The notes below the pieces were generated by a model. The model ran no database searches, was not told the origin of the DNA, and worked only from the letters and a program-made list of their open reading frames with translations. A stretch of 64,000 bases of DNA, taken from an uncultured Gammaproteobacteria bacterium. Its GTDB lineage: Bacteria > Patescibacteriota > Microgenomatia > Levybacterales > GWA1-39-11. Below are positions 11,720 through 49,632 of the stretch, piece after piece (the first letter of the stretch is position 1; every line of letters starts with the position of its first letter). Location: contig CAZDED010000005.1 of NCBI GenBank assembly GCA_964504535.1, positions 9,411-73,410 on the forward strand, given 5' to 3'. The position numbers were made by a program, and so were the translations under genes.

Positions 11720-12052
11720 ATTTGAGTATATTTATACCATCATAAGGTTGATTTGTCAATATATTATGCCACCATATAGTGTCAAAATATGGAAATAAAG
11801 CTGATATAAGGCTGTTTTTGTACAGGGATAGAAGATTTGAAAATATATATTATTGTCAAGAGTGTTGAACATTATATAACTATAAGATAAAATGTACCAC
11901 TGTTTTAAAGCAGTCAAGCAATAGCTGTTTGATGACCCTTGAAGCAGCGTACATTAACAATCTGCTGAAAAATACTCCTTTCGGAGACTTTTCCCATCAC
12001 AAATATGGTGGGCGAAATCTCCGACAAGGAGAATACAATGAGGAGGGGCGTT

Positions 12053-12820
12053 ATGTCCCAGGCATTTCCTATCCCTGCATCCATCCTTCAGCCCATTCCT
12101 GATCCCGTCCCGGAAGGCTACTTCCAGCGGTGGCAGGTCTACGTCGATGGGCAAGAGGCAACGCCTCAGCACATCACGATGGTGAATGTGGGGCAAGGAC
12201 TCCAGCTCGACTGGGGCTCTCACCCCGATGGCAAATGGTCGCAGTTCTGTTACCGCGAGAACCATGGAGGTGGCGTTGTCATCATTCCGCATGCAGTCAT
12301 GCCCGACGGGCGTGTCTACATCGGCGTCATCGACGCCAGGCGCCCTTTCCGCGATCCGCGGCCAGGGGCTGTCTTCATGGAGTTGCCGCGCGGTATGCGT
12401 GACAAGCTGGAATCGGCCACACAGGCCGCTCAGCGCGAAACGGAAGAAGAGACCGGCCATTCGGTTTCCGAAGGGTCGTATGTCGTGCTCGATGGTGATG
12501 GGGCCAACCCCAATTCCACCTTCTGGCTCACGTATGATCACAAGAACGAGACGCCGGATGGCGTCAGGTTCGTGACCGTCGAAGTCCCGGCCTCATCGCT
12601 CGTTCCCTCAAGGGACGGCGAAATGGTTTTGGACACCGCCGGACCCGTGGATTCCTTTGAAGGAATCGAGAAGTGTAGGTTCGTGCCCCTTACTATCCGT
12701 GAAACCGCGGGTGAAGGGGACATGTTCCTGCTCAGTGGAGCTTTCAAGCTCCAAGCGTACCTCATCGGACACTACGCCAACGTTTCCTTTCGGGATGGCG
12801 TGATGGTCGTGTCCAACTAG
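12053..12820 (+). CDS. Nudix hydrolase (ADP-ribose pyrophosphatase-like), encoded in GC-rich island A
   Basis: Nudix box GMRDKLESATQAAQRETEEETGH. High GC3 codon usage. AGGAGG sits 6 nt before the ATG at 12053; the ORF is open from 12005. Confidence 0.7.
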   Translation: MSQAFPIPASILQPIPDPVPEGYFQRWQVYVDGQEATPQHITMVNVGQGLQLDWGSHPDGKWSQFCYRENHGGGVVIIPHAVMPDGRVYIGVIDARRPFRDPRPGAVFMELPRGMRDKLESATQAAQRETEEETGHSVSEGSYVVLDGDGANPNSTFWLTYDHKNETPDGVRFVTVEVPASSLVPSRDGEMVLDTAGPVDSFEGIEKCRFVPLTIRETAGEGDMFLLSGAFKLQAYLIGHYANVSFRDGVMVVSN

Positions 12821-12838
12821 TCATTCAGCAGATCTCAG

Positions 12839-12860
12839 CCGGGTACCTCACGGTACCCGG
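12839..12860 (+). terminator. GC-rich hairpin ccgggtacc-tcac-ggtacccgg 18 nt after the island A stop codon (weak U-tract)
   Basis: Perfect 9-bp inverted repeat. Confidence 0.4.
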
Positions 12861-13106
12861 CACCATTTAAAACCTAATCAGCAGGGTTGGTAAATATTGG
12901 TACTACATCAATTCCAAGGATACAAGAAAGAGTTTGCCAGTTCCCATTCAAATATGTCTTATATATCGATATATCATGCAATAGTGGCTTATGTTTTTGA
13001 GTTAGTTGAAGCTTGCCGTGGACTAGTTGAAGGGTTAAAATAAGGAGTCTTAGGGTAGTAGCTTAGTGCGAATGAAATGAGCACCAAACTTACTTTTTGA
13101 CAATAT

Positions 13107-13180
13107 AGGGTCGTAGTTTACCGGTAGAATAGGGGTCTCCAAAACCCTTGAAGATGGTTCGATTCCATCCGGCCCTGCCA
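13107..13180 (+). tRNA. tRNA-Trp (anticodon CCA), CCA encoded
   Basis: Acceptor AGGGTCG/CGGCCCT. Anticodon stem GGGGT/ACCCT with loop CTCCAAA. T arm GATGG-TTCGATT-CCATC. D stem carries two G-U pairs. Confidence 0.7.
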
Positions 13181-13286
13181 GGCACCATTCGGAGCCTGGC
13201 TTCGCAAGGAGCCAGCGTAGATGGTGACGCAGTCAGGTATCGTATGGTACCTGACAACCTTAGTATCCTCCATGTAAACTTAACAA

Positions 13287-13547
13287 GTGAAATTATTTTA
13301 CGTCTATATTCTTCGCAATAGAGATAAATATTTTACCTACATCGGTTATTCTGAAGACTTAAAATTCCGTTTGAAAACTCACAATTCTGGACAAGTTATT
13401 TCAACTAAGCATTACGTTCCACTTGAACTAATCCATTACGAAGCATATAAAAATATGAAGGATGCAAAGAGAAGAGAGCAATATCTTAAATCCAATAAAG
13501 GCAAAACTACCTTAATAACAATGCTTAAAGAATACTTTTCAGAATAA
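13287..13547 (+). CDS. GIY-YIG nuclease family protein (UPF0213/YhbQ-like)
   Basis: FYVYILRN...YIGYSEDLKFRLKTHN matches the GIY-YIG core. Confidence 0.75.
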   Translation: MKLFYVYILRNRDKYFTYIGYSEDLKFRLKTHNSGQVISTKHYVPLELIHYEAYKNMKDAKRREQYLKSNKGKTTLITMLKEYFSE

Positions 13548-13584
13548 TAGCCCCAGAACTTTTACAACCCTCGAGCACAATTCT

Positions 13585-15178: not shown

Positions 15179-15378
15179 AAAAAGATAATAAGTTCAATAT
15201 TATTTACTCAAGCAATGTACGGTAGGCTTATACGAAGCTAATTTTTATCTTATAGTTTTGATATTCGTTTCAATTTCTGTTAAAATATATCTATGCAAAC
15301 ATGATAAATCTAAGCTCAAAAATGCTGCTTAGAGGTGTCAAATTTGCCATTTTTAGCACTTTTACATTGCGGAAATTA

Positions 15379-15426
15379 GTGGTTACCACCTTACACATAA
15401 GATGTTGTGTTTGAGGTGGTAACCAT
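15379..15426. repeat. long hairpin at the left edge of GC-rich island B (stem ggttaccacc/ggtggtaacc, 24-nt loop with an internal acaca/tgtgt repeat)
   Basis: Perfect 10-bp inverted repeat read directly. Confidence 0.5.
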
Positions 15427-15447
15427 AGAAAGAGGAGGTCACACCAA

Positions 15448-15833
15448 ATTGTAGGGGCAACCCTGAATCCTCAGCGTGTCGAGGAGATTTTTCTTGACTG
15501 CCTCTTCAAGCGTGGAGAGGACACGACCAGCCACATCAAGGCCGAGGGTATCACCTCGGTGGTCGGGTTTCATCCCAACCGCCTCGAAACCCATAAGGCA
15601 GAGATCAAGGCTCTCTTGGACGATTGCCTGATGAGTTCAAGCTGACAGGCGGCGGCGGAATGTCATTCCTGAAAGCCTGCAACGACAAGCACGGCAACCA
15701 ATGGACCGGTCTCCATTAGCACATGGAGCAACTGTTCCAACTCGGAATTGCCATCGGCAAGGTGCAAACCCTTCTCCCTCGGGAGATGTGGTCGGCACTA
15801 CCGGGTGCAGTGCCGTACTACGCAATCATGTAG
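15448..15833 (+). pseudogene. disrupted GC-rich ORF: three collinear segments (…HKAEIKALLDDC / …LTGGGGMSFLKACNDKHGNQWTGLH* / HMEQLFQLGIAIGKVQTLLPREMWSALPGAVPYYAIM*) separated by one frameshift (~15600-15645) and one in-frame TAG (15717)
   Basis: Protein-like, high-GC3 translation continues across the frameshift and stop. AGGAGG at 15433 has no ATG downstream. Confidence 0.5.
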
Positions 15834-15888
15834 TCAGCCCAACCCTCACATCGTCAAGACAACGGTTCACAACCAGAGAAAGGAAGCC

Positions 15889-16254
15889 ATGTCACTTACG
15901 ATCACCGCTGATTTCCTCCAACGATTTGTAGGAGGACAGTTGGAGTATGAGAACACAATGGGGCATTATCGGTTTCGCGGCGAGATCGAACGTGTCTGGA
16001 TAGAGGGCAGCAAAAATGCAACAATGTACGTCCTCTTGAAGTGGCTTGCCGAGATGGGTGAGGACTCCAGATGGCACGGTGCCGTTGACACCCTCGATTA
16101 CTCGGTCGGCCTCGCCGAAACGAGTTTCAGTGAGGCTGACGACAGCACTGTCCATTATGTCTCAACGCTCATTCAAGAAAAGGGGACCTTTTTCCCTCCA
16201 GAAGGAAGTAGACTGGATCCGTTGGAGGTGGAAGGGCTCCAGCTTCCCTCCTAA
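15889..16254 (+). CDS. hypothetical protein (121 aa) of GC-rich island B
   Basis: ATG preceded by AGGAAG. High GC3. The longer ORF from 15748 runs through the pseudogene tail. Confidence 0.55.
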   Translation: MSLTITADFLQRFVGGQLEYENTMGHYRFRGEIERVWIEGSKNATMYVLLKWLAEMGEDSRWHGAVDTLDYSVGLAETSFSEADDSTVHYVSTLIQEKGTFFPPEGSRLDPLEVEGLQLPS

Positions 16255-16293
16255 CAAGTTCCGCATCACGAATCACTCGGGCAAAAGTGCACT

Positions 16294-16327
16294 GGGCCGC
16301 GACACGTTCGCGGCCCTTTTGCTTTTG
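16294..16327 (+). terminator. Rho-independent terminator gggccgcg-acacgtt-cgcggccc followed by ttttgcttttg
   Basis: Perfect 8-bp GC stem plus a U-tract. Confidence 0.7.
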
Positions 16328-16403
16328 TAAAGTAAAACAATATTTTCCGATATATTCGCTCGCGGGTTCAAGCTTGACCTTAACATATATATTTGAAATA
16401 CTG

Positions 16404-17198: not shown

Positions 17199-17365
17199 TT
17201 CGCTAAAACATCATTTAGTTAAAAAACTTTTACACTGGATTAAGCCGAGAATTTCCTCAAGCCGCGTAAACTATCTTATAGTTTGACATTTGACCCCAAA
17301 TTTAGTATAATTCTTGTTCACCGATATGGTGAAAGTGCCTTCGCGATATGTGAAAGGAGAACAAT

Positions 17366-17896
17366 ATGCGATCAGGCGAATGGACGCAAAGCATGGCACT
17401 TGCTATGTCAGCGGCCGTCGGAGTCCTAACCATAACAGGTGGGACATATCCCTCGGAAGTCATCAAATACTTCCGCGGAATTACTCCTAGTCCTCAGCAC
17501 GTTTCACGGAAGCTGGGGTTGAAAACACACGAAGAATACTTCCAGTTGACCTTCGAGTCAATCGGAGATGTAGTCTTTCCTGTGATTATTGAGGTCGCTC
17601 TTTTGTGCGAAGATTGTAACCTCCACACCCATAACTGGGGAACATCCTTACCCAACTGTTACATGTTCCTGCAAATAAGTAAGTACTTACAAAGGTACTA
17701 TTGGAATAGAAATTATTATATGAATCAACAAGTAATAGAAGAACAGATCACAACAACTGAAGTTTCATCTCCTCTGCAAGCTATGAGAGCTACCAAACAA
17801 GCTCTAAATCCCCAAGTTAAGACTGAACACCCACAAAAAGTATTTGAAAAAAGAAAAAGATTTTTCGTTTTAACCAAGTCGTTTGGTATATCCTAG
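17366..17896 (+). CDS. hypothetical protein (176 aa)
   Basis: Strong AAAGGAG site before the ATG. The 5' half is moderately GC-rich. Confidence 0.45.
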   Translation: MRSGEWTQSMALAMSAAVGVLTITGGTYPSEVIKYFRGITPSPQHVSRKLGLKTHEEYFQLTFESIGDVVFPVIIEVALLCEDCNLHTHNWGTSLPNCYMFLQISKYLQRYYWNRNYYMNQQVIEEQITTTEVSSPLQAMRATKQALNPQVKTEHPQKVFEKRKRFFVLTKSFGIS

Positions 17897-23011: not shown

Positions 23012-23085
23012 TCTCCATTTTTTAAGGGTACGAAATGATTTCTGCCTATTTTAGATATTTTTTTTCCAGCTTGATAGAACTTATG

Positions 23086-23117
23086 AAAAAGACCCCGAGC
23101 ATGCTCGGGGTCTTTGG
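23086..23117. terminator. bidirectional terminator: perfect 22-nt palindrome gaccccgagcatgctcggggtc flanked by AAAAA and TTTGG
   Basis: Sits between the convergent + gene (ends 23011) and the - strand island C operon (ends 23126). Confidence 0.7.
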
Positions 23118-23125
23118 AATTGAGA

Positions 23126-23425
23126 TTACTGGGACGAGTATGTCCCCTTGTCGTCAGCAAGCGTGACGCACGCCGTCTGTTTGATCCACTCACGGTCGTG
23201 ATGGGCGTACTGTTGGCATACCATTGTTGTGAGAATGGAACGATCACCTGGTACCTTGAAGTACATTCGGGCACGTTCTTCAAAGCTAGCAGTGACGCTT
23301 GCGATGATCTGCTCTCTCGTGACACCCCCAGGAAGGGGGTCAACCAGCGTGTAGTTGAGCGTGAGCATTCCAAGGTTCGTTGGCACGAGAACTTGGAGAA
23401 CTTCGCTTGGTGAGGTAGTGCTCAT
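23126..23425 (-). CDS. hypothetical protein (99 aa), second gene of GC-rich island C operon
   Basis: High GC3 on the minus strand. It starts 17 nt after the upstream stop. Confidence 0.5.
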   Translation of the reverse strand: MSTTSPSEVLQVLVPTNLGMLTLNYTLVDPLPGGVTREQIIASVTASFEERARMYFKVPGDRSILTTMVCQQYAHHDREWIKQTACVTLADDKGTYSSQ

Positions 23426-23442
23426 GACGTTACCATGAGAGG

Positions 23443-23796
23443 CTACCCTGCGGTTTCTTGAGGCATCGCCTCATTGGTCATCAGGTGTTCCTGGATGAGC
23501 TTCGCAAGTTCACGAAGGCCTTCTTCGGTCCGGGCAACAACTTCCACGCCAAGCCAGTTCAAGGACTTTGGGGTCCGTGCCAGCTTGGAGCGCGCCGCCA
23601 GGGGGAGGGCTCCTACGAGAGCCCAGGCTTCCTCCGAACGGAGGAGCTTGTGGCCAGTATGGGTCATGAAAGCGAATGCTTTCCAGTCCCGGTCGAAAGA
23701 TGAGGTGACGACGATGTGAGCAAGTCCAACGTCCTTCAGTTCCTTGGCGGCGAATTGCTTCCACCGCGTGTCTTGAAGGTCAATCCTTCTGATCAA
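23443..23796 (-). CDS. hypothetical protein (117 aa), first gene of GC-rich island C operon
   Basis: GC3 is about 70% on the minus strand. The overlapping + strand ORFs lack this bias. Confidence 0.5.
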   Translation of the reverse strand: MIRRIDLQDTRWKQFAAKELKDVGLAHIVVTSSFDRDWKAFAFMTHTGHKLLRSEEAWALVGALPLAARSKLARTPKSLNWLGVEVVARTEEGLRELAKLIQEHLMTNEAMPQETAG

Positions 23797-24118
23797 GCTA
23801 TGTCTCCGGTGTGAAGTGTCTGTTCCATTGCCGTTGGGGTACGAAACAGCTTCTCAAAGACATGTAAATCTTCAAAAAGCTATTTCGTACGGTAAGAAAT
23901 GAAGTAATCTCAATTGTTAATGTACATCATGAAATCCACGTAAGGCGCGCATGTGCCTCAAAGGATTTATGAGGAAAACTATTATACCTGCAATAGCCTT
24001 GATTGTGCAATTGCTAAGCATTGTGCTACTTGACTGTGAGTTTTGAGATACCGTACACTGAAATCAGTTTATAGTTGTAAAACTAGTAGCTGAGGACTAA
24101 TAACTCGTCTCTGCCCAT

Positions 24119-26760: not shown

Positions 26761-27825
26761 TTGACAATAACCAATTTTGAGGTTACAATATGTGATCATA
26801 TTATGTCAATTCCAATCGAAAGAGAATTTGAAACGATACGTCCCGATATTGAGAAAATAAGGTTTAAAGATTATATAAGGCACTTGCCCGAACCAGAAAA
26901 TCCAAGAACAGAAGCAATGGGTATAAGTATAATTCCGGACAATGGAATTGCTATGGATAGTGCAATTTGGATGCAGAGAGTGCAAGATGGTTATGAGTTA
27001 TCCTTGAGTGTGGTTGATATAGCATCCGGTGAGATGGGTCGCTTTTCGGGTCCTGACGCTGGCTTTGTTAAGGCGATCACTATCAAATCTGTTCTTGATT
27101 TAGAACTTGAGAGCCAAAAGTTTGAAATTAGTTTTACAAACCTTCAGTCACTTGCTGTCATTAGAGATTCTGACGTTATGCAATATATTAAAGATGATCA
27201 ATCGGAGCTTCATATATTGCTCAAACCTTATTTTCAAATTGCGCATTCATTAAAGGAAAAAAGAAAATATGAAGGTGCGCTCGATGATGCCTACAGTAAA
27301 GCATCTTCTTTTATTAGAGGCGATTATGCTGTACAAGACATACAGGTTGTGAGGAGAGAATTCTTACATTTGGCAAAAAAAGCAGTTGCAGAGAAATTCG
27401 CACAGGATAATACACTAGCGCTTTATGAAAATTGGTTTGAAAGTCAGAGTGGTATGCCTGTTGTGGAAATCAGTGCAGCCGAGGAGCAATTTGATAAGAA
27501 CCCCACGGAAACGAATGCTGCTGCAATTATTTCTTTAATAAAAAGTGGCATGGGAAAGAGGGTACACAATATAAATCCTGCCGGTCATGTGCTCTACAAC
27601 GATGAAGCACACTTGAAATTTACTATTCCAGCCAAAGAATTCTCAAGTTACATTAATCTTATTATATTGCATGGAGTGTTGACGGGAGATAATCCTTATA
27701 CCCCTCAGCAAATAGACATAGCAATAAATACTATCAATGGAAAAAAAGGCCTTAGTTCACCCTACTATTGGTTATCGCCACGAAGGAGAGTTATTAGTAA
27801 GAATCAAGGAGACTCTATTTCATAA
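26761..27825 (+). CDS. hypothetical protein with degenerate RNB-like (RNase II/R catalytic domain) similarity
   Basis: ISIIPDNGIAMDSAIWMQ...YELSLSVVDIASGE parallels the RNB IDxxxAxDxDDAxS...VHIADVS motifs, but the acidic residues are mostly replaced. Confidence 0.3.
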   Translation: MTITNFEVTICDHIMSIPIEREFETIRPDIEKIRFKDYIRHLPEPENPRTEAMGISIIPDNGIAMDSAIWMQRVQDGYELSLSVVDIASGEMGRFSGPDAGFVKAITIKSVLDLELESQKFEISFTNLQSLAVIRDSDVMQYIKDDQSELHILLKPYFQIAHSLKEKRKYEGALDDAYSKASSFIRGDYAVQDIQVVRREFLHLAKKAVAEKFAQDNTLALYENWFESQSGMPVVEISAAEEQFDKNPTETNAAAIISLIKSGMGKRVHNINPAGHVLYNDEAHLKFTIPAKEFSSYINLIILHGVLTGDNPYTPQQIDIAINTINGKKGLSSPYYWLSPRRRVISKNQGDSIS

Positions 27826-29282: not shown

Positions 29283-29296
29283 ATTTTTAGAAAAGT

Positions 29297-29322
29297 CCCC
29301 GGGCGCACTACAGCGCCCGAGG
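29297..29322. terminator. GC hairpin cccgggcgc-actaca-gcgcccg(a)gg between convergent gdhA and the island D gene; U-tract present on the minus-strand side
   Basis: Read directly; 7 bp plus an extension. Confidence 0.55.
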
Positions 29323-29345
29323 ACAGAACCAGATTTAGCTGGTGG

Positions 29346-29600
29346 CTAAAGCCGAGTGGCGAGGCACGTTGTCGTACGTTGAACGCCACCGATCGTCTGG
29401 ATGCTGCAGGTGACGATTTGGCCGACGCTGTCCAGGTCGTTGTGCGTGATCTTCACGATCACATCGTACGGACCGGTCACGGTGTTGATCTCGGAAAGCT
29501 GTCCGCTGTGGCCGTTTTGGGCAATCTCGGAAAGGCGCGTAGCAACGGCCTTTGACTTGCCGACTTCCGTCTCGATCAGAACGTAAGCGTTAACCGCCAT
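29346..29600 (-). CDS. stand-alone Lrp/AsnC C-terminal ligand-binding (RAM) domain protein, GC-rich island D
   Basis: VNAYVLIETEVGKSKAVATRLSEI...TGPYDVIVKITHNDLDSVGQIV is the canonical AsnC_trans_reg fold sequence. GGAGG lies 8 nt before the ATG. Confidence 0.7.
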   Translation of the reverse strand: MAVNAYVLIETEVGKSKAVATRLSEIAQNGHSGQLSEINTVTGPYDVIVKITHNDLDSVGQIVTCSIQTIGGVQRTTTCLATRL

Positions 29601-29637
29601 GACTCAAGCCTCCTGTCCCGCGAAGCGGGAACGACTA

Positions 29638-29657: not shown

Positions 29658-29964
29658 GGTCTTTGTGGATTGTGTTTTATGCACCTCCAGCTTGATCTGT
29701 TGTTAATGCGAACAAAGACGTAAACTCTCCCGCGCACTGCGCGGAAGGCCACATCTCAATTCACTGATGGTAATTATAGGTCTATAGTATATAAAATGCA
29801 ATGATCTGTGATTAAAATTGCGTTCTTAAAAAAATAGAAAAAAAGAAACTATCCCTAAAATTAGGAAGGGATTTTTGAAAAAAACGCGAGTGTTCCTTCG
29901 GAACCAAAGGCTTCATCATCGGGGTGAGCAAAAACGGCACCAACGAACAGTTTCATGTTTTTAT

Positions 29965-34092: not shown

Positions 34093-35823
34093 ATGCATAT
34101 TGTTCACTCTATCGCTTCTGAAATAGGGCAAATCGCGAAAAAATTCTCAGAAGAATTCCTAGAATTTGATGTTTCTGTAGGTTCAAATAGTAGCAAAGGA
34201 GACATTACAACAAATATCGCCCTCGTACATTTCAAGAAATTAGGATTTAACTCACCACATGAAGCAGCAGACGCAACTGTTGCCGAATATAAACTTCATG
34301 AAGAAGAATTGGGTGAACACTCAACATTTAAAAACATTGAGGTAGCAGGGCCAGGTTTTATCAATTTTTATTTCAATCAAACATTTCTTTCTTCTGTTTT
34401 AAAATCAGTCATTCAAGATGGTAATCAGTTTGGTAAGAATGAAAAACTAAATTCTCAAACAAATAAAACAATCGTTGAATTTGGGGATCCAAACCCTTTC
34501 AAAGAAATTCATATCGGGCATCTTCGGAATTTTTGTATTGGAGAGTCTTTTTGCCGGCTTTTAGAGTCTCAAGGTGACACAGTCATCCGTGCAAATTATC
34601 AGGGAGATGTCGGCCTTCATGTAGCAAAGGCAATGTGGGGGTTACTAAAAAGAGAGGAAGAATTCTTAGATTCTGGTAAATCTGAGGATGAAAAAGTAAA
34701 GATTTTAGCCGAGTCTTATGTGGAAGGTGCAACTGAGTTTGAAAATAATGAAACTGTTAAGCAAGAAATCATTGATATCAACAAGAAAATATATGGTGAC
34801 GATGAGAGTCTATATCAGTTGTGGGAGGAAGGTAGAAAAGTTAGCCTTGAACACTTTGAAGAACTCTATAAAAAGATCGGAGTACGTTATGACAAATACT
34901 TTTTTGAGTCCACGACTGCAAAAAAAGGAAAAGAAGTGGTTCTTTCTCATATAGATGATGGTGTTTTTGAAAAAGATGATGGGGCAGTCGTATACAGAGG
35001 AGAACAGGATGGGTTGCATACTCGTGTTTTTTTGACATCCCAAGAATACGCAACCTATGAAGGAAAGGACCTAGCGCTTGCCATCTTGAAAAATGAAGAC
35101 GATGAGTACGATATATCGGTAATTTTGACAGGAAATGAGCAACAAGAATACTTTCAGGTAATGCTTGCGGCTCTTAAAAGAATTGAGCCAAGCCTTGCAT
35201 CAAGAACAAGTCATTTTACTTTTGGACACGTAAAGCTTAAAGAAGGAAAGATGTCTTCACGTACTGGAGACGTAATATCTGCAAATTGGTTGATTGACGA
35301 GGCGATAAAAAGGGTTCGTACGCAATTTTCGGATATGGACGAAGGAACCTCTGAAAAAGTAGGAATAGGAGCTGTGAAATATTCTATGCTTAAATTTGCA
35401 ATTCCATCTGAGATCCATTTTTCTTTTGAAGAATCAATTTCGTTGGAAGGAAACAGTGGGCCATATTTGCAGTATGCGTATGTCAGGACGCAAAGTGTTT
35501 TGCAAAAAGCAGGAAGTCAGAGTACAGAAAACAGGGGACAGGGGACAGTTAAGGCTGGAAGTTTGGAAAATGAGGAATCTGACCTATTACGTTTTCTTAC
35601 ACAATATCCGTACCATGTAGAAAATGCCTCAGTCGAATTCGCTCCAAATTTACTGTGTAACTATCTATTTGAATTAGCACAAAAATTCAACCTCTTTTAT
35701 CAGAAATGCAAAATCATAGATTCAGAAAATGAGTCATTTCGGTTGGAACTTACAAAGGCCGTGGGGATAGTTCTTCAGAATGGCCTGCAACTTCTTGGCA
35801 TCGAAACAGTTGAAAAAATGTAA
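34093..35823 (+). CDS. argS: arginine--tRNA ligase
   Basis: HIGH motif PFKEIHIGHLRN; a DALR anticodon-binding domain at the C-terminus. Confidence 0.9.
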   Translation: MHIVHSIASEIGQIAKKFSEEFLEFDVSVGSNSSKGDITTNIALVHFKKLGFNSPHEAADATVAEYKLHEEELGEHSTFKNIEVAGPGFINFYFNQTFLSSVLKSVIQDGNQFGKNEKLNSQTNKTIVEFGDPNPFKEIHIGHLRNFCIGESFCRLLESQGDTVIRANYQGDVGLHVAKAMWGLLKREEEFLDSGKSEDEKVKILAESYVEGATEFENNETVKQEIIDINKKIYGDDESLYQLWEEGRKVSLEHFEELYKKIGVRYDKYFFESTTAKKGKEVVLSHIDDGVFEKDDGAVVYRGEQDGLHTRVFLTSQEYATYEGKDLALAILKNEDDEYDISVILTGNEQQEYFQVMLAALKRIEPSLASRTSHFTFGHVKLKEGKMSSRTGDVISANWLIDEAIKRVRTQFSDMDEGTSEKVGIGAVKYSMLKFAIPSEIHFSFEESISLEGNSGPYLQYAYVRTQSVLQKAGSQSTENRGQGTVKAGSLENEESDLLRFLTQYPYHVENASVEFAPNLLCNYLFELAQKFNLFYQKCKIIDSENESFRLELTKAVGIVLQNGLQLLGIETVEKM

Positions 35824-36335
35824 AGGGTGGTGCCGGAAAGCAGGACTATCACCCCATGATGCCCTAGGGCATCAAGTGAGTCCCACGATGGGGACATCAA
35901 CTTTCCGGCGTTTAAAACACACTGCGTTATTGGGATCTTAGCGCCTCTGCGCCGTGGCTGTCGTCTTCAGCGGCTGATCGGGAACCCCGTCACCGTTGTA
36001 AGGCCTGAAGCCATTCGACCGCTGCTGCTTGCGATCGGCAGCTGCCTGTTCGCGGCTTGTTTCCGTTTCTTCTCCCGGTCCGAGTGATTCACGAAGAGAC
36101 CCTCATCGACCGACCGTTCTGGGCCCTCCGATGAGAGACGGTGGCGGTGGGAACGTATGTGCTAACGTTCCCATGCATCCGGTCTTGTAGGACCTTCCGC
36201 TTGTTGCGCCATGCCTTGAAGGAGTTGCTACTCCTCCACGTATCTTTCGCTTTGCTCAAGTACCTTTACCTCTCCTGGAGTGGATTGATCCCGTTTTACG
36301 CAGTGTAGTTTTTCAATGATCTTAAAAGCAGAACC
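35824..36335. other. GC-rich non-coding island E: no ORF of 60 aa or more in any frame, dense hairpins (candidate structured ncRNA or decayed foreign DNA)
   Basis: An 82-nt nested structure lies at 35825..35906 (gccggaaag...ctttccggc enclosing gatgcc-ctag-ggcatc and ccccat/atgggg). Further perfect stems: gggaacgt/acgttccc, ctcatcg/cgatgag, ggcagctgcc. Confidence 0.3.
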
Positions 36336-36430
36336 GCTCTTACGCTAAGTGCACTAGCACTAGCATAAGTTAAGAATCCGCTCTCGTGATGCAGATATTA
36401 TACACCTGCATAGTATAAATACTAGATTTC

Positions 36431-39049: not shown

Positions 39050-39694
39050 CTAAGTAATTTTATCAAGATCGATAGCCTCAGACAGTTGAAAAGTATTCAC
39101 ACGGGTTCTAATAAGACCTTTTAAATACCCACCTGTTTTTAGTTTTTCACCCAAATCTCGAGCCAAAGAACGGATATAAACCCCTGGTCCAGTGGTCACA
39201 TTTAGCCTCAAAATGGGGTAGTCGTACTCCAAAATCTCTATGTTTTTAATGATGACAGCTCGTGGCTCAAGCTTTACTTCCTCGCCGTGACGAACCCGTC
39301 TGTGGGAAGGTTTTCCCGATATTTTCACGGAGCTATAAATTGGGGGTGTCTGCATGATATTTCCTATAAATAATTTGATCGATTCTTTGATTTCAGAAAT
39401 ATTGGGCAGACTTTTAACATTTACATTTTGCTTTTCACCTTCTTCATCATCTGTCGTAGAATTTGCTCCCAAAAAAATAGTTGCTATGTATTCTTTTTCG
39501 CCTTTTACGAATTCATCTAAGCGTTTTGTGTTTTCTCGGCCAACAGCAATGACTAAAACTCCAGAGGCCAATGGATCCAAGGTTCCACCGTGACCAACAC
39601 GTCTAACGCCTGTTTTTTTACGAACAATATCCACAACATCATGAGATGTGATGCCGACGGGCTTGTTGACTGCAAATATTCCGTTGTTTTCCAT
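39050..39694 (-). CDS. truB: tRNA pseudouridine(55) synthase
   Basis: VGHGGTLDPLASGVLVIAVG. Confidence 0.85.
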   Translation of the reverse strand: MENNGIFAVNKPVGITSHDVVDIVRKKTGVRRVGHGGTLDPLASGVLVIAVGRENTKRLDEFVKGEKEYIATIFLGANSTTDDEEGEKQNVNVKSLPNISEIKESIKLFIGNIMQTPPIYSSVKISGKPSHRRVRHGEEVKLEPRAVIIKNIEILEYDYPILRLNVTTGPGVYIRSLARDLGEKLKTGGYLKGLIRTRVNTFQLSEAIDLDKIT

Positions 39695-39722
39695 TTGTTA
39701 TATAATCGAACAAGTCAATTAT

Positions 39723-41072
39723 ATGAATCTTTTAGACAATATCAAACAAAAAGCACTCGAGGAAAATCTTTTGATAAGAAAAACAGACGAGGAAAAATAC
39801 GGCAAAAAAAATGGTATTTCAGTTAGGAGGCTTTCTAATGGGGCAAGAATCTTATCCGTTCAAAGAATTGTTGGGGACAGTAGAGTTTCAACGGTGAGTT
39901 TTAATATGCATTCCGGTGGGTACCTTGATCCAAAGGGTTATGAAGGCGCACACCACTTTTTAGAACATTTATTTTTTACGCAAAAACTGCGCAATCTTTA
40001 TCAGAAGTATCTTATCGAATCAAATGCATTTACATCCCAAGACAAAATTTCTTTTTATACTCGTGGAGGATTTAATACAAAAGTAAAAGACTTTGGTTTA
40101 CAAAAAGTTTTGAAAGCAACTGTGGACTCAATTATTTATCCCGAAACATTAGACAATACGGAAAGTTTTGAATTTAGCAAAGAAATAATTTTAAGAGAAA
40201 TTGACGAATTTTATGCAGATTATCGAAGGTATATGTTTGATGAATTATATAAATTAACACTTGTTGAAGATAACCCTTTTTATGGAAGTGCTCTTGGATA
40301 TCGAGAGTCAGTAATAAGAATAACTCCTGAAATTGTAAAAAAAGTGCTAAACGGCCATATTTCTACCCAAAATATGATAGCAACCATTTTTTCAGAAGGA
40401 AATGGCGCTGAGAGTCATGAACTTTCAAATGTTGTTGCCGATTTGCTTGAAAAATTTCCACGCACTCAAAAAGTTGATGAGATTAAATGGGAGAACATAG
40501 CCAAAACAAAAAAACTTCCCTTCGGAAAAACAGTTAGACATTCTGTAAAAATACAATCAAATATTGTTTCAATAAATTATGCTTGGATGATACCTATAGA
40601 ATACTTATCTAAAGATGACAGGATCACCCGTCTTTTAGGACCATTTCTTTCTGAGCTTTTTAATATTGAGGGACGGGAAAAAGGGCTAGGGTATTCACTA
40701 TATTTTTATCCAAGATATTTTTTCCCAAAGAGCATGTTGATAACGGCGAGCGTTTTATGTCCAGTCGAAGAACTTGATAAAACGCAGACACGAATGGAAC
40801 AAGTCGTTACGACAACTCTTAGAAGACCTCTTGTGGACAAACAGCTTTTTGAAGAGCTCTTATCAACTGAAAAAAACAGGCAGAGTATCGAGCCTATATA
40901 TTCAGGAGGAAGAATGGATACGGCTTACGACTCAGTTAAATGGTTTGACCTTCTCTTTAACAGTGAAAGAATGCGTGAATTGTTTTTAGAATTAAAAGAA
41001 AATGATCTCCTAACGATGCTAAAAAAAATTACCGATCAAAAACCAGCAATTTATATTCTCGGAAATATCTGA
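39723..41072 (+). CDS. M16-family peptidase, second copy (ORF open from 39648; start moved to MNLLDN to avoid overlap with truB)
   Basis: HHFLEHLFF HxxEH motif. Confidence 0.6.
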   Translation: MNLLDNIKQKALEENLLIRKTDEEKYGKKNGISVRRLSNGARILSVQRIVGDSRVSTVSFNMHSGGYLDPKGYEGAHHFLEHLFFTQKLRNLYQKYLIESNAFTSQDKISFYTRGGFNTKVKDFGLQKVLKATVDSIIYPETLDNTESFEFSKEIILREIDEFYADYRRYMFDELYKLTLVEDNPFYGSALGYRESVIRITPEIVKKVLNGHISTQNMIATIFSEGNGAESHELSNVVADLLEKFPRTQKVDEIKWENIAKTKKLPFGKTVRHSVKIQSNIVSINYAWMIPIEYLSKDDRITRLLGPFLSELFNIEGREKGLGYSLYFYPRYFFPKSMLITASVLCPVEELDKTQTRMEQVVTTTLRRPLVDKQLFEELLSTEKNRQSIEPIYSGGRMDTAYDSVKWFDLLFNSERMRELFLELKENDLLTMLKKITDQKPAIYILGNI

Positions 41073-46605: not shown

Positions 46606-46615
46606 TCACTGACCA

Positions 46616-47371: not shown

Positions 47372-48002
47372 AATACATCAAATGGCCACACATTCTTTTA
47401 CTGTCAAAGAATCTTTAAAATACGGTTGGGATACTTTTAAAAAGAACTGGCAATTTTTAATTGCAGTATTTGCAATTGTTGTTCTTGCCGGCATGATCCC
47501 AAACTGGCTACATGATTGGTCACGGGACAACATGCCAAATGTATCTTTTGTTTTTTCTATCATCAGCTGGCTTATACAAATGATCACTGGCATTGGAGTT
47601 ATCGTTATCAGTCTGAAAATAGTGGATGGGAAAAAACCAAATATTTCAGATCTGTATACTCATTCTTCACTCCTTCTCAATTATTTCCTCGGGTCATTAA
47701 TTTACGGACTTGTAACTATCGGAGGATTTATTTTGCTTATTATTCCTGGAATAATTTGGGGAATTAAGTATCAATATATAACGTATTTGATCATAGATCA
47801 GGGAATGAGTCCAATGGATGCTTTTAGAAAAAGCGGGAAGATAACACAAGGGCACAAAACAAAACTTTTCTGGCTCGGAATTTCATATATAGGGATAACA
47901 CTTCTTGGCATTCTTGTATTTGGGATTGGTCTTATTATCTCCTGGCCCATCATTGCTCTTTCTGGAGCATACGTCTATCGAAAGCTTTCCCCTAAGAAAT
48001 AA
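47352..48002 (+). CDS. integral membrane protein (6 predicted TM segments)
   Basis: Hydrophobicity pattern only. Confidence 0.5.
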   Translation: MLHPSLKIHQMATHSFTVKESLKYGWDTFKKNWQFLIAVFAIVVLAGMIPNWLHDWSRDNMPNVSFVFSIISWLIQMITGIGVIVISLKIVDGKKPNISDLYTHSSLLLNYFLGSLIYGLVTIGGFILLIIPGIIWGIKYQYITYLIIDQGMSPMDAFRKSGKITQGHKTKLFWLGISYIGITLLGILVFGIGLIISWPIIALSGAYVYRKLSPKK

Positions 48003-48101
48003 AGTTGGTATTGTTTGTAACTCTTTTTCATAGATTGTACCTCTTGTCTACTCGTTAAATTCATGTAAATCTATATGTAGCTTCCTTGCCCCGGCTACAA
48101 A

Positions 48102-48587
48102 ATGACTGCCCAACTGTACACCTCTGTTTTTTATTTCTTGTTTTTATTTTTTGTTGTGCCATTTAGTTTGCTTACTTCTGCAATAGTTAAAACGGGCTTT
48201 TTGACCGGAGTCAACGCTTTTGTTGTTGTTTCTTACTCTATGAATCCGTCAGTTCCTATGGGAAGTGTTATTTATACAAAAAAAGAATCAACCTATAAAA
48301 AAGGGGATATAATTGCCTTTCCGTTAAAAGGTAAAACAATTTCACACAGAGTAGATGATGTTATAAAAATAGGTAGCCAGATTTACTATTCAACGAAAGG
48401 GGATGCAAACGCCATCTCCGATTTTGATTTAGTTGAAAGAGGAAGCATCTTAGGAAGGGCTGTTTTTTTCTTGCCATTTGTAGGTGAAATAATAGTAGCG
48501 CTGAGAAACCAAAATTTAATCCTCTTAGGAGCCGTCTTGCCCACGCTTCTTTTCCTCGGTAGGAAAATAGTACCCCATAGTTTTTGA
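48102..48587 (+). CDS. signal peptidase I (S26 family, SipW/archaeal-type)
   Basis: SYSMNPS Ser box, GDIIAF, and ISHRVDDV His box. Confidence 0.7.
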   Translation: MTAQLYTSVFYFLFLFFVVPFSLLTSAIVKTGFLTGVNAFVVVSYSMNPSVPMGSVIYTKKESTYKKGDIIAFPLKGKTISHRVDDVIKIGSQIYYSTKGDANAISDFDLVERGSILGRAVFFLPFVGEIIVALRNQNLILLGAVLPTLLFLGRKIVPHSF

Positions 48588-48767
48588 TTTTTCCCATTTT
48601 GTGCTATAATAACTTGTTTTTGCCCACCTTTTGGCGTGTTGCATGTCAAAATCAACGGGCTTAGCACGTTAACAAGTTGCTTGATATTTTTTAAGGTTGC
48701 GGCTTTCTGCTAATCTATGGTTGGTAGGAAGCCGTAACCTATATTCTGCGGCAAGGAGACAACAGGG

Positions 48768-49556
48768 ATGACCTACCTTGAGGCTATCACCACGACACTC
48801 AAAAGCGCAACATCTCGCTGGGCAGCGGTAGCGCCCGCTTTCCTCAAGCTGCCCGAAGGGCAGGTCGTCGTCGTCCACGTGCTCATCCGCGGCGAACAGT
48901 TCGTTGGACGAGTATCAATGCCGGCGGAGATCACCAGCCAGGCGCGTGCCATCCAGTCGCTTGGCATTCAGACCCTTGGGTTCTACCGCTTCGATGCGGG
49001 CCTCTGGGAGATGGCTTGGAAATTGCTCCAAGCCATCGACGAGTCCACGAAGAACGCACCCAAGCTGTTCGAAGAAGAGCTTCTCAAGAGGCTGCTTTCA
49101 GAGGGCGTAGTCAGGGATGACCTGATCACGCCGGTTCCCGACGATATGGAGGAGTTCTTCCTTCATCGCGTCGGGACGGAGCAGGCCATCGTTATGGCCT
49201 CCGCCGAGGAGGACATCTTCAACGTTCCCGAGAATCCGCTCGGCCGCCTCATCGCGCCCAAGGGGACAGTGGCCATGTATTGGCCAGCCATCGAGAAGGA
49301 GCGAGATGACGTGCGCAAAGCGCGCGAACAGGACCCCATCCTCGGCACCCCGTTTGTAGTAATCCATCACCACTCCTCGCAAGAGGAGACGGACGAGCGG
49401 ACTAGGAGCCGTTTCCGCCGCAACCGCGTCACCACCGAGACCGAGCCGGTTCCCGGAATGGGAGCATCGGAGAGCAAGGATCGTGGTGAGCCTTCCTACG
49501 TTCCGGCCGGTCTCGCAAGGACCCGCCGCGGTCAAGCCGGTCAAGACCTCGGCTAA
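48768..49556 (+). CDS. hypothetical protein (262 aa), GC-rich island F
   Basis: AAGGAG before the ATG. High GC3. Followed by a strong terminator. Confidence 0.6.
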   Translation: MTYLEAITTTLKSATSRWAAVAPAFLKLPEGQVVVVHVLIRGEQFVGRVSMPAEITSQARAIQSLGIQTLGFYRFDAGLWEMAWKLLQAIDESTKNAPKLFEEELLKRLLSEGVVRDDLITPVPDDMEEFFLHRVGTEQAIVMASAEEDIFNVPENPLGRLIAPKGTVAMYWPAIEKERDDVRKAREQDPILGTPFVVIHHHSSQEETDERTRSRFRRNRVTTETEPVPGMGASESKDRGEPSYVPAGLARTRRGQAGQDLG

Positions 49557-49585
49557 CAAGCCGACGCACATCAAGCAACTCCCGT

Positions 49586-49620
49586 CCCCCGATTGCAGAA
49601 ACGCAACCGGGGGACTTTTC
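49586..49620 (+). terminator. Rho-independent terminator cccccgattgc-agaaac-gcaaccggggg + acttttcc
   Basis: 11-bp stem with one mismatch, plus a U-tract. Confidence 0.7.
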
Positions 49621-49632
49621 CTACGCTAAAGC

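Follow-up and report, generated by a model that had tools for sequence, protein, structure and literature searches.

The six GC-rich islands (I1 to I6) of the 64-kb window, that is, of the whole stretch of DNA analysed here, are best explained as cassette mRNAs that are probably antiterminated through boxA and Nus factors and clamped at their ends, with a GC-richness held by selection, probably on RNA structure. We hold this reading with moderate confidence. It builds on directly observed features, namely a shared architecture, pairing of the transcript ends with covariation, restriction to one clade, orthology with a lasting GC bias at third codon positions (GC3) and excess predicted RNA structure, from which we infer how the end helix acts and why GC content is high. 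The cassettes constitute one long-lived, lineage-specific family within a clade of Candidatus Levybacteria, and each is a complete transcription unit (Table 1).

Composition and integrity of the islands

Sliding-window analysis revealed six sharp steps in GC content, from a background of ~0.35-0.42 to 0.52-0.63 (window mean 0.394), at ~11940-12920, 15380-16380, 23080-23860, 29240-29780, 35760-36320 and 48660-49700, borders that agree to within tens of bases with those given by an earlier sequence-only reading. tRNA genes account for further blips above 0.49 (7041-7430 and 13061-13280). GC3 was bimodal across all 74 ORFs examined, with values of 0.59-0.74 for the six island ORFs and 0.23-0.42 for all others; none of the 74 had an intermediate GC3 between 0.42 and 0.59. 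Computation of GC and GC3 thus confirms the compositional steps noticed by that reading, and its description of cassette-like units, each with its own ribosome-binding site and terminator, is borne out by the Shine-Dalgarno (SD) sequences and GC hairpin terminators found in the islands. The contents also match those that it listed: a Nudix protein (I1; weak NUDIX match of the 271-aa ORF in Pfam, E 9e-7), a pseudogene with a 121-aa ORF (I2; no family match for the latter), a two-gene operon (I3), a RAM protein (I4; Lrp/AsnC RAM-domain match of the 84-aa protein in Pfam, E 6e-8), an ORF-less segment (I5, which holds a decayed gene and no intact ORF) and a 262-aa protein (I6; no Pfam match).

Chimeric assembly or binning, whereby GC-rich fragments of other organisms would have been stitched into an AT-rich contig, was considered too, and some public contigs do consist of an island alone (~0.9 kb; L005 and L006). 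However, I1 and I6 with both flanks recur at 100% identity in independent Logan/ENA assemblies from other samples: the junctions are identical in ENA assemblies and in those made independently from three other runs. MAGs of different studies contain orthologous cassettes between the same flanks, and the AT-rich leaders co-vary with the GC-rich cargo as a single unit. A chimeric origin can be practically dismissed.

Table 1. Elements of the six cassettes in the window (L numbers are sequence handles).
Feature	Positions	Strand	Remark
I1 promoter-like site TTGAAC-17-TAAAAT	11865..11893	+	~60 nt upstream of boxA-like motif, like other cassettes
I1 boxA-like motif ACATTAACAA	11951..11960	+	preceded by predicted hairpin; kept in homologues (ACATTAACAA in L093, ACATTAAAAA in L092)
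I1 leader arm ATCTGCTGAA of leader-trailer helix	11960..11969	+	
I1 cargo ORF, 271 aa from ATG 12005	12005..12820	+	weak NUDIX domain; GC3 0.70
I1 trailer arm TTCAGCAGAT	12824..12833	+	
I1 terminator hairpin GCCGGGTACC-TCAC-GGTACCCGGC	12838..12861	+	
I2 promoter-like site TTGATA-17-TAAAAT with TG	15258..15286	+	
I2 truncated motif ACAT, then leader arm TGCGGAAATT	15364..15377	+	
I2 leader hairpin, then SD AGAGGAGG	15380..15427	+	
I2 first gene, disrupted by frameshifts and an in-frame stop	15445..15835	+	ORF fragments continuing one another
I2 cargo ORF, 121 aa	15889..16254	+	GC3 0.59
I2 trailer arm AAGTTCCGCA	16256..16265	+	
I2 terminator	16294..16316	+	
I3 promoter-like site TGCACA-17-TATAAT	23981..24009	-	TATAAT and -35 region unchanged across 5 species
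I3 boxA-like motif ACATTAACAA	23914..23923	-	homologous position: CACTTTGAAAA in L018, GTTCTTTGAAAA in L020 and L024
I3 leader arm AATTGAGATTACT	23903..23915	-	
I3 cargo ORF 1, 117 aa	23443..23796	-	GC3 0.66; two-gene operon with ORF 2
I3 cargo ORF 2, 99 aa	23126..23425	-	L016 homologue 58% identical
I3 trailer arm AGTAATCTCAATT	23118..23130	-	
I3 terminator hairpin	23087..23114	-	
I4 -10 box TATAAT	29772..29777	-	kept in L018, L019
I4 boxA-like motif GCATTAACAA	29700..29709	-	same place: TGCTCTTGAACAA in L023, CGCTCTCTGACAA in L022
I4 leader arm CAGATCAAGCTGGAGG	29684..29699	-	
I4 cargo ORF, 84-aa stand-alone RAM (Lrp/AsnC ligand-binding) domain	29346..29600	-	
I4 trailer arm CCACCAGCTAAATCTGG	29329..29345	-	
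I4 terminator	29295..29324	-	
I5 extended -10 (TGTATAAT)	36397..36404	-	
I5 boxA-like motif CATTGAAAAA	36309..36318	-	
I5 leader arm ACACTGCGT	36298..36306	-	
I5 decayed cargo without intact ORF, readable as three frame pieces	35940..36260	-	
I5 trailer arm ACGCAGTGT	35919..35927	-	kept in L099
I5 long terminal hairpin (GCCGGAAAG...CTTTCCGGC)	35832..35909	-	adjoins ArgRS stop
I6 conserved-unit left edge and promoter (TGcTATAAT)	48575..48610	+	L007 homology starts here, L007 copy at other site
I6 boxA-like motif ACGTTAACAA	48666..48675	+	CATTAACAA in all relatives
I6 leader arm AGTTGCTTGAT	48675..48685	+	
I6 leader hairpin, 20 bp, then SD AAGGAG	48695..48739	+	
I6 cargo ORF, 262 aa, clade-restricted orphan family	48768..49556	+	GC3 0.73
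I6 trailer arm ATCAAGCAACT	49570..49580	+	
I6 terminator hairpin and conserved-unit right edge	49586..49620	+	

Shared architecture and pairing of the transcript ends

In gene orientation, all six cassettes display the same order of elements: promoter, hairpin, boxA-like motif, a cassette-specific arm of 9-17 nt, strong leader hairpin, strong consensus SD sequence, one or two GC-rich ORFs, complementary arm and terminator. The promoters are of the sigma-70 type, the 5' arm begins 0-4 nt after the boxA-like motif, and its reverse complement is located right behind the stop codon, 4-6 nt upstream of the intrinsic terminator. Across cassettes the motif takes the forms CATTAACAA, TTCTTTGAAAA and GCTCTTGAACAA, with a variant in I5 and a truncated copy (ACAT) in I2, and homologous positions carry the variants ACATTAACAA, CACTTTGAAAA, GTTCTTTGAAAA and TGCTCTTGAACAA. 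It lies on the strand of the gene, 54-127 nt upstream of the start codon in I1, I3, I4 and I6, or 102-127 nt if I1 starts at the alternative ATG 12053, behind GAGGAGGGG. Its significance is confined to co-location with the cassettes; a 12-nt weight matrix gave no enrichment over the whole window (8 matches versus 8.25 in shuffles).

Cofolding of leader and trailer predicted an end helix for each of the six cassettes in the window, and such helices, 9-17 bp long, were seen in 21 cassettes of 8 families. The longest exact complement was 7-13 nt for cognate arms, compared with a mean of 7.0 nt for non-cognate arms, only 6.5% of which attained 9 nt. In a homology-based alignment of five frames from the I3 site, pairing holds for 95.4% of cells, and compensatory changes affect 5 of the 13 pairs, a covariation score matched by none of 500 shuffles, whereas slid controls pair only at 14-43%. 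Compensatory changes in the arms are also present in the RAM and Nudix families, as in the I1 homologue L092 (ATCTGTTGAAAG / CTTTCAACAGAT), and several end helices contain G-U pairs on the sense strand.

Clade-restricted distribution and site dynamics

The combination of motif, arm pair, GC-rich interior and terminator has ~20 non-redundant occurrences in 334 kb of DNA from the clade, compared with none in the 1.04 Mb of CPR loci from elsewhere. Searches of sibling genomes, which the sequence-only reading had proposed, recovered the same cassettes at matching sites: 5 sister species share the RAM cassette, at least 5 genomes share I6, and L093 and L016 share I1 and I3, respectively, with the orthologues coming from MAGs of unrelated projects. 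Although 38-79% of four-fold degenerate sites differ between orthologues and are thus partly to fully turned over, GC at these sites is still 0.54-0.82, compared with 0.16-0.36 in host genes. Empty sites were found too, the I3 site being vacant in L023 (213 bp), and other species hold different cargo there inside homologous frames.

These results bear on the earlier proposal of six independent, unameliorated insertions into a Saccharibacteria-like genome. Recent acquisition from high-GC donors, such as the actinobacterial host of an episymbiont, would fit the strong compositional contrast and foreign-looking codon usage, the presence/absence polymorphism at the sites and the many homologues of the RAM cargo in other phyla (50-58% identity). 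It is nonetheless very unlikely, being largely refuted by the sister species that hold the same cassettes at the same sites with conserved AT-rich leaders, by orthologues that stay GC-rich despite synonymous turnover and by the lack of any ORF with intermediate GC3; the same-site orthologues of I1, I3, I4 and I6 in related CPR genomes are themselves at odds with independent insertion. Nor does an actinobacterial donor appear. Among 5.8 billion proteins, only 5 relatives could be detected for the I1 protein family and 9 for that of I6 (8 matches when 1.84 billion representatives were searched with a profile), in related CPR contexts in every case whose contig was looked up. No outside protein is as close to the clade's RAM proteins as these are to one another; their nearest outside relatives are only 50-58% identical, and the named ones among them are Dehalococcoidia/Tepidiformaceae (Chloroflexota), not Actinobacteria. 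Moreover, the organism belongs to Candidatus Levybacteria/Levyibacteriota (Microgenomates), with no known actinobacterial association. The high GC content thus appears to be kept up actively and not to be left over from a recent transfer.

The other earlier suggestion, a mobile GC-rich cassette family, comes closer to the data: entire cassettes can be gained, lost or moved to another site. Their inheritance is mostly vertical, but the sites act as hot spots. I6 and the Nudix cassette are each found at two different genomic sites, and homology between I6 and its L007 copy spans exactly the promoter-to-terminator unit (identity of 72-78% in the leader, 83-86% in the trailer and 52-67% in the ORF, versus 22-23% outside the unit). 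Within conserved frames the cargo is replaced or diverges fast, and certain cassettes are in decay, as seen in I5 and in the first of the two I2 genes.

Such mobility, the bracketing of cargo by inverted repeats of 9-13 bp and the differing cargo of homologous I3-site frames could also mean that the repeats act at the DNA level, as terminal repeats of transposable cassettes or as sites at which recombination inverts a phase-variable segment, rather than as RNA pairing partners. We consider this quite unlikely. The repeats differ between cassette families and therefore offer no common recombinase site, and several helices preserve their pairing only with the help of G-U, which is a mismatch in DNA and on the opposite strand. 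Transposase, integrase and invertase genes are absent in and next to every cassette, no target-site duplications were seen, and in the moved unit the conserved block is bounded by promoter and terminator instead of by the repeats. Finally, cargo is co-directional with the promoter in all cassettes examined, whereas an active inverton would be expected to be flipped sometimes.

Folding and codon usage of the cargo

Cargo RNAs are predicted to fold more stably than shuffled controls in I1 (z = -5.9), I3 (-4.4), I6 (-4.1), I5 (-3.0) and I2 (-2.7), as well as in orthologues (-2.0 to -4.4), compared with -0.4 to -1.05 for host genes and 0.06 to 0.34 for Era genes of genomes with 55-65% GC; the RAM cargo has no excess folding (z about 0). 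Selection for transcript secondary structure is the most likely cause of the GC-richness. For a conserved ORF-internal structure, RNAalifold gave no net covariation among five I6 homologues (covariation term +11.2), a result that lends no support to selection on a specific cargo fold. Cargo also departs from host genes in a CAI-like index (0.44-0.53 versus 0.69 +/- 0.03) and in the fraction of C on the sense strand (0.29 versus 0.18).

The excess structure (z -2 to -6), the rRNA-like framing, the better conservation of frames than of ORFs and the persistence of frame, arms and excess structure in I5 despite its broken ORF raise the alternative that the islands serve first of all as genes for structured RNAs, either non-coding or dual-function, handled like rRNA precursors, with secondary or incidental ORFs. 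This is unlikely in view of the Pfam domains in I1 and I4, the order GC3>GC1>GC2 in the chosen frames, the strong, correctly spaced SD sequences, the in-frame indels of homologues and protein-level conservation of 55-90%. Further, no Rfam family matched, even at E<=1, and a conserved internal fold finds no support in net covariation.

A model drawn from rRNA operons

For cassette mRNAs with clamped ends, rRNA operons, an established antitermination system, are the source of the proposed mechanism. NusB and NusE (S10) would assemble on the boxA-like RNA and render RNA polymerase processive and termination-resistant; the modified polymerase would hold the 5' arm at its RNA exit channel until the emerging 3' arm pairs with it, clamping the mRNA ends as a leader-trailer helix beside the terminator hairpin. 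This helix might serve to protect the ends, or might next undergo processing. Expression would thereby become possible for an mRNA that is rich in C, heavily folded and poorly matched to the codon usage of the host, and that is probably translated slowly. Judging by its sequence and position, the motif may be a functional boxA on which Nus factors act. The boxA consensus published for gamma-proteobacteria is GYTCTTTAANA (PMC5725501). The nusB, rnc and rho genes are absent from the 64-kb window. A NusG gene is present in it.

We found no description of protein-coding genes with rRNA-like flanking signals. In rrn operons, boxB, boxA and boxC follow in this order within the leader-trailer helix, for which a tethering model has been put forward (PMC10250234). 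The cassette helices, at 9-17 bp, are short compared with classical RNase III substrates, but the layout of the cassettes resembles that of rRNA-operon leaders, with boxB, boxA and a leader/trailer helix.

GC-rich islands are discrete and genuine

Sliding-window analysis recovered the six GC-rich blocks picked out by the sequence-only reading (I1-I6, numbered left to right), with GC stepping up to 52-63% at essentially the borders it had proposed, against a window mean of 39.4%; the only other local maxima were tRNA genes. GC at third codon positions (GC3) was strictly bimodal across 74 ORFs, ranging from 0.59 to 0.74 in the island ORFs (n = 6) and from 0.23 to 0.42 in all others, with none between. 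As expected of genomic islands, composition is deviant in GC, GC3 and codon usage, and ORF and domain analysis bore out the contents that the same reading had given for I1-I6 (see table). The islands are clustered, all six lying within 38 kb; the other 26 kb of the window has none, and no further ones were found in 18 kb past its ends (8-10 kb on each side).

Chimeric assembly could be excluded, since I1 and I6 with their flanks were 100% identical in independent assemblies of other runs and orthologous cassettes were present in MAGs from unrelated studies. Several public contigs, among them two of 0.9 kb (L005, L006), consist of the I6 island alone, ending no more than ~50-90 nt from the ORF ends, which suggests that assembly graphs often break at island borders through coverage or GC bias or strain-level presence/absence.

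Blastn-short revealed nothing shared among the islands past chance 11-mers, so they are not copies of one repeat. No Rfam family matched any window island at the gathering threshold or at E<=1, and none did so at gathering score in the clade loci scanned; rather than encoding rRNA, the bodies consist of ORFs with Shine-Dalgarno (SD) sequences and Pfam domains. PADLOC returned no defence-system match for ten cargo proteins, PHROGs yielded a weak Nudix match only, and the AlphaFold model of the I6 protein (pLDDT 57.6; no Foldseek match in the PDB below E 0.2) was uninformative.

Features of the window and of loci or contigs from related genomes or public assemblies (L numbers); z is the folding score against dinucleotide-preserving or synonymous-codon shuffles
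Feature	Sequence	Position (strand)	Content	Motif	Folding z
I1	window		271-aa protein, weak NUDIX match	ACATTAACAA	-5.9
I2	window		frameshifted remnant (broken first gene) and 121-aa ORF	truncated to ACAT	-2.7
I3	window		operon of 117-aa and 99-aa ORFs	ACATTAACAA	-4.4
I4	window		84-aa RAM-domain protein	GCATTAACAA	about 0
I5	window		no intact ORF; cargo readable only as three frame pieces	CATTGAAAAA	-3.0
I6	window		262-aa protein without family match	ACGTTAACAA	-4.1
I6-family cassette	L007				-4.0
Nudix cassette	L092				-4.4
Cargo	L020				-2.0
Host genes					-0.4 to -1.05
Era genes from 55-65% GC genomes					0.06 to 0.34
I6 leader hairpin	window	48695-48739 (+)	20 bp, then U-rich stretch
I4-site unit	L020	18868-19080	small predicted membrane protein
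I4-site unit	L024	18431-18676	small predicted membrane protein
Genes between PGK and I4	window	26761-29282 (+)	RNB-domain gene and glutamate dehydrogenase (GDH) gene
AT-rich stretch	L099	1250-2630	two ORFs
GC-rich islands	L026	12160-13100, 5030-6510	short ORFs only
GC-rich island	L027	560-1850	short ORFs only
Consensus promoter	window	17283-17311 (+)	TTGACA-17-TATAAT
ORF past this promoter	window	17366-17896	no Pfam match; GC3 0.42
L1 gene	window	30460-31353 (-)	297 aa
NusG gene	window	31799-32674 (-)	291 aa
TruB ORF	window	39050-39694 (-)
M16-like peptidase ORF	window	39648-41072 (+)	start GTG 39648
PBP2 ORF	window	50885-52660
tRNA-Phe(GAA) call	window	50899-50991 (+)	93 nt, ARAGORN
L10-leader-like match	window	57916-58019 (+)	36.7 bits (gathering 44), E 0.026
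ORF past this match	window	58021-58539
L10 leader match	L011	20933-21041	passes gathering score

All six islands share one transcriptional frame

Read in gene orientation, all six islands have a common layout, in which a promoter with a good -10 box is followed by a hairpin, a short motif, a cassette-specific arm (9-16 nt, 0-4 nt past the motif), a strong leader hairpin, an AGGAGG-type SD sequence and the GC-rich ORF or ORFs (the cargo), with the reverse complement of the arm just past the stop codon, followed after 4-6 nt by a GC hairpin terminator. The motif, of the CATTAACAA/TTCTTTGAAAA type, always lies on the strand of the gene, 55-65 nt past the -10 box and 54-127 nt upstream of the start codon (102-127 nt if I1 starts at ATG 12053). 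Variants occupy homologous positions across sister genomes (ACATTAACAA, CACTTTGAAAA, CTCTCTGACAA, GTTCTTTGAAAA in L020 and L024, and TGCTCTTGAACAA in L023), and all I6 relatives carry CATTAACAA.

Sister genomes hold 15 more cassettes with this layout. The motif together with an arm pair, a GC-rich interior and a terminator gave about 20 non-redundant occurrences within 334 kb from the clade, compared with none in 1.04 Mb of other CPR loci. Scored with a weight matrix, the motif is not significantly enriched in the window, only its position and orientation relative to the cassettes being significant. A relaxed regular expression for motif and arms produced many false positives in AT-rich DNA, from which only the GC-rich interior and the terminator separate the cassettes, and the consensus promoter and terminator scan, with totals not above shuffled expectation, is useful for individual sites only.

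The leader hairpin of I6 was flagged as terminator-like and could be a leader attenuator read through by an antitermination complex. Outside the islands, a perfect consensus promoter precedes the ORF with the highest GC3 among non-island ORFs. GC-rich islands also occur in more distant clade members (L026, L027), with no recognisable motif and arm frame on the expected strand; some of the products are small and hydrophobic, and the L026 genes appear to run in the opposite direction.

The cassette ends form a covarying helix

Cofolding of leader and trailer predicted an end helix in six of the six window cassettes, and across 21 cassettes the helices measure 9-17 bp, with arms 337-1181 nt apart. 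The longest exact complement is 7-13 nt between cognate partners, compared with a mean of 7.0 nt between non-cognate ones, only 6.5% of which reach 9 nt. In a homology-based, gap-free alignment of five frames from the I3 site, 95.4% of cells pair and 5 of 13 pairs contain compensatory double changes, a covariation score matched by none of 500 shuffles; when the alignment is slid by 1-3 columns, pairing falls to 14-43%. The family of I1 (Nudix cassette) shows a compensatory change from ATCTGCTGAA/TTCAGCAGAT to ATCTGTTGAAAG/CTTTCAACAGAT or the reverse, and compensatory arm changes occur in the family of I4 (RAM cassette, with an Lrp/AsnC RAM domain) too. Complementary flanks with covariation, as in an rRNA-type leader-trailer helix, are thus present, and these patterns indicate that the arms pair and that the pairing is under selection.

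A less likely reading has the arms as DNA repeats belonging to a transposon or inverton. Several helices keep their pairing through U-G on the sense strand, some of it surviving only in this way, which favours an RNA-level helix over a DNA-level repeat. Moreover, the arms are family-specific, no recombinase was seen, cargo orientation is uniform, and the unit that moves extends from promoter to terminator, not from arm to arm. Neither shared terminal repeats nor target-site duplications typical of transposable elements and MITEs were found, no transposase lies nearby, and in all cassettes examined the cargo is co-directional with promoter and terminator, with no invertase seen. A more speculative extension of the RNA-level helix is that the end-clamped RNA is processed, circularised or exported.

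Cassettes are old residents of a Levybacteria clade

The genes around the cassettes are cellular housekeeping genes (ArgRS, Era, PGK, L1/L11/NusG/SecE, MreC, PBP2 and sortase). An Era-based scan with one genome per species gave 76 loci, among which the close named relatives were Candidatus Levybacteria/Levyibacteriota; the genome is therefore not that of a member of the Saccharibacteria, a possibility that the sequence-only reading had raised. GC islands of the cassette kind are present in the closest relatives (Era 60-97% identical) and essentially absent from 64 more distant CPR loci. In L018, L019, L022 and L023, the RAM cassette occupies the same site as in the window, with PGK (or GDH) on one side and the L1 operon on the other. 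I6 is found at the same site (between a signal-peptidase-like gene and MreC) in L011-L015 and L095, and at another (between glyoxalase and DprA) in L007-L010; the Nudix cassette keeps its site in L093 and has a different one in L092, and L016 has an I3 orthologue. At four-fold degenerate sites, cassette orthologues differ at 38-79% and host orthologues at 46-76%, and GC at these sites is 0.54-0.82 in cassettes versus 0.16-0.36 in host genes.

The I1 and I6 proteins have 5 and 9 relatives, respectively, among 5.8 billion proteins, and a profile search of 1.84 billion representatives with I6 gave 8 matches; every contig looked up for these relatives had a related CPR context, with the gene in a GC island. 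Outside homologues of the RAM protein reach 50-58% identity, the named ones being from Dehalococcoidia/Tepidiformaceae, and the RAM proteins of the clade are nearer to one another than to any outside homologue. As to a viral origin, three scans of viral contigs with the I1, I4 and I6 proteins detected no relatives.

These data overturn the interpretation that first suggests itself for GC-rich islands in an AT-rich genome, namely recent lateral transfer. Neither absence from close relatives nor close donor homologues, as expected of recent islands, were found; recent transfer is contradicted by orthologous cassettes at the same sites in sister species, by GC kept despite synonymous turnover, and by cassette dynamics (homologous frames and relocation of whole units). 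The sequence-only proposal of six independent, unameliorated insertions from an actinobacterial host is unsupported, because the cassettes are old, as judged from same-site orthologues and turned-over four-fold sites, are still GC-rich and have no visible donor. Its second suggestion, a mobile GC-rich cassette family, comes close to the data.

Among the host genes, the tRNA-Phe(GAA) call inside the PBP2 ORF, where the Rfam tRNA model is silent at the gathering threshold and at E<=1, is probably a false positive. A sub-threshold match to the ribosomal protein L10 leader lies directly upstream of an ORF, with a counterpart at the equivalent place in L011. NusG has an N-terminal extension of ~120 aa ahead of the NusG domain, and L1 a long one ahead of its best Ribosomal_L1 stretch (residues 180-290). 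The TruB and M16-like peptidase ORFs overlap head to head by 47 nt if the GTG start of the latter holds, although translation probably begins further downstream.

Frames persist while cargo differs

At the I3 site, L023 has an intergenic stretch of 213 bp and no cassette, the window and L016 share one cargo family, and L017, L018, L020, L022 and L024 have another. The frames at this site are homologous across species (-35/-10, hairpin, motif, arm, leader hairpin, trailer arm and terminator), whereas the ORFs are not. Between I6 of the window and that of L007, which lie at different sites, homology spans exactly promoter to terminator, with 72-78% identity in the leader, 52-67% in the ORF and 83-86% in trailer plus terminator; outside the unit, the two are 22-23% identical. 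In L094 the frame is almost unaltered around an I6-family cargo that has diverged strongly, and I5, though decayed in its ORF, keeps motif, arms and terminal hairpin. An AT-rich stretch of ~1.4 kb lies between ArgRS (89% identical) and an I5-type cassette in L099. More speculatively, the conserved frames might act as docking platforms for cargo swapping.

At the I4 site, the RAM protein is replaced in L020 and L024 by small predicted membrane proteins, whose units share a terminator different from the usual one, and the RAM-like proteins of L022 and L023 are only ~32% identical. RNB-domain and GDH genes separate PGK from the RAM cassette in the window; in most sister genomes the cassette directly follows PGK, and L016 has GDH, apparently without the RNB gene. 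With these variable genes, the I4 site is a hot spot for ordinary AT-rich genes too.

Excess folding and the maintenance of high GC

Cargo of the other five window islands, and of the cassettes from L007, L092 and L020, folds in excess of shuffled controls, and the RAM cargo does not (see table). Era genes from GC-rich genomes are likewise without excess folding, which is therefore not generic to GC-rich coding sequence. If selection favours a strongly folded transcript, this would keep GC high against the AT bias of the host; as an alternative, biased gene conversion during frequent exchange could keep the islands GC-rich. Bearing on the proposed selection for folding, RNAalifold detected no net covariation in five I6 homologues that would mark a conserved internal fold, the covariation term being positive (penalising). 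A purely non-coding RNA role is unlikely in view of Pfam domains, SD sequences, in-frame indels and protein-level conservation, and a dual coding and RNA role is possible.

The frame resembles an rRNA operon leader

Leaders of rRNA operons contain boxB, boxA and boxC in that order, with boxC within the leader-trailer helix (PMC10250234). BoxA recruits NusB/NusE to form an antitermination complex, which in the current rrn model retains the leader strand at the RNA exit channel until the trailer has emerged (PMC10250234; PMC4807359, PMC12360218). At the level of sequence and predicted structure, the cassette layout, with a hairpin, a boxA-like motif and a long-range helix around the transcribed body, is that of an rRNA operon leader. 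The gamma-proteobacterial boxA consensus is GYTCTTTAANA (PMC5725501), and boxA drifts with phylogenetic distance (PMC5725501, PMC7665894). Upstream of suhB and CRISPR arrays, boxA shields poorly translated transcripts from Rho (PMC5725501, PMC7665894). The cargo fits this protection logic, having codon usage far from that of the host (CAI-like index 0.44-0.53 versus 0.69 +/- 0.03 for host genes) and a C-rich sense strand (0.29 versus 0.18), and we infer that the motif may be a functional boxA. No rRNA genes were found in the 22 of 114 loci scanned with Rfam or among called features 8-10 kb past both window ends; the window encodes NusG, and not nusB, rnc or rho.

A clade-specific cassette family

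The islands belong to a family of autonomous, GC-rich cassettes specific to the clade, whose frame is rRNA-like and whose two ends are joined by a covarying helix. All components belong to known kinds, namely boxA-type leaders, leader-trailer helices and moron-like units. In the literature searched, there was no description of GC-rich islands in Levybacteria/Patescibacteria, of boxA plus a leader-trailer helix around mRNAs, or of a compositional contrast kept over the long term, and there is a fair chance that the cassettes deserve a category of their own. Only tentatively do we propose an undescribed class of bacterial element, in which dispersed, exchangeable mini-operons would use rRNA-precursor logic (boxA-modified polymerase and a co-transcriptional leader-trailer helix) to express folded GC-rich mRNAs, their composition long held apart from the AT equilibrium of the host. 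If true, this reduced CPR genome would contain a compartment of accessory genes that is insulated in its composition.

An anomaly that outlasts synonymous turnover challenges composition-based detection of horizontal transfer and the inevitability of amelioration. BoxA/Nus antitermination and leader-trailer machinery are familiar mainly from rRNA, lambdoid phages and CRISPR arrays; the cassettes suggest their co-option as a modular expression frame for protein-coding accessory genes, by which a universal transcription system would have gained a new role. The family also offers a testable set of cis elements for an uncultivated CPR lineage, where gene regulation is almost uncharted, and its cargo is a pool of fast-evolving, clade-restricted orphan proteins that are candidates for lineage-specific, possibly host-interaction, functions.

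Comparison with known systems

As in the rRNA system (PMC10250234, PMC4807359), a post-promoter hairpin precedes a boxA(-like) motif and the 5' helix strand, the 3' strand lies past the body, the sequence of the helix can change as long as its strands stay complementary, and the body exceeds the surrounding genome in both GC content and structure. The cassettes differ in that the body is a protein-coding mRNA with SD and ORFs, the helix spans 9-17 rather than 25-40 bp, the 5' arm lies 0-4 nt past the motif rather than 18-19 nt downstream, each unit has its own intrinsic terminator, and a role of Nus factors is putative. With the suhB leader and CRISPR arrays (PMC5725501, PMC7665894) the cassettes share a boxA, putative in their case, within the 5' leader of transcripts other than rRNA and the proposed purpose of guarding translation-poor transcripts from premature Rho termination; those cases, however, are single loci, lacking a leader-trailer helix and compositional distinctness, whereas the cassettes are a dispersed family.

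Like integron cassettes, the islands are small, mostly single-gene units with diverse cargo, largely without assigned function, that varies at conserved positions. Unlike them, they are dispersed instead of arrayed, have no attI or attC (and no integrase among the window genes scanned), carry their own promoter where integron cassettes are usually promoterless, and have repeats that bracket the ORF, 0.3-1.2 kb apart, where attC is compact. Phage morons are autonomous promoter-gene-terminator units of deviant composition between conserved genes. The cassettes resemble them in having one or two genes, their own promoter and terminator, a composition unlike that of their neighbours, and an intergenic insertion between conserved genes that varies in presence among relatives; they lie, however, among chromosomal housekeeping genes (ArgRS, Era, PGK, L1/L11/NusG, MreC, PBP2) and not in a (pro)phage, and the boxA-like motif and end helix are not known as moron features. 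Finally, pairing of 5' and 3' mRNA ends is known from hok (fbi/tac), B. subtilis hbs and S. aureus icaR, where, as in the cassettes, the 5' leader pairs with the 3' UTR of the same mRNA, there affecting stability or translation; those are individual genes with idiosyncratic pairings, whereas in the cassettes the pairing is family-wide and coupled to a motif and GC-rich cargo.
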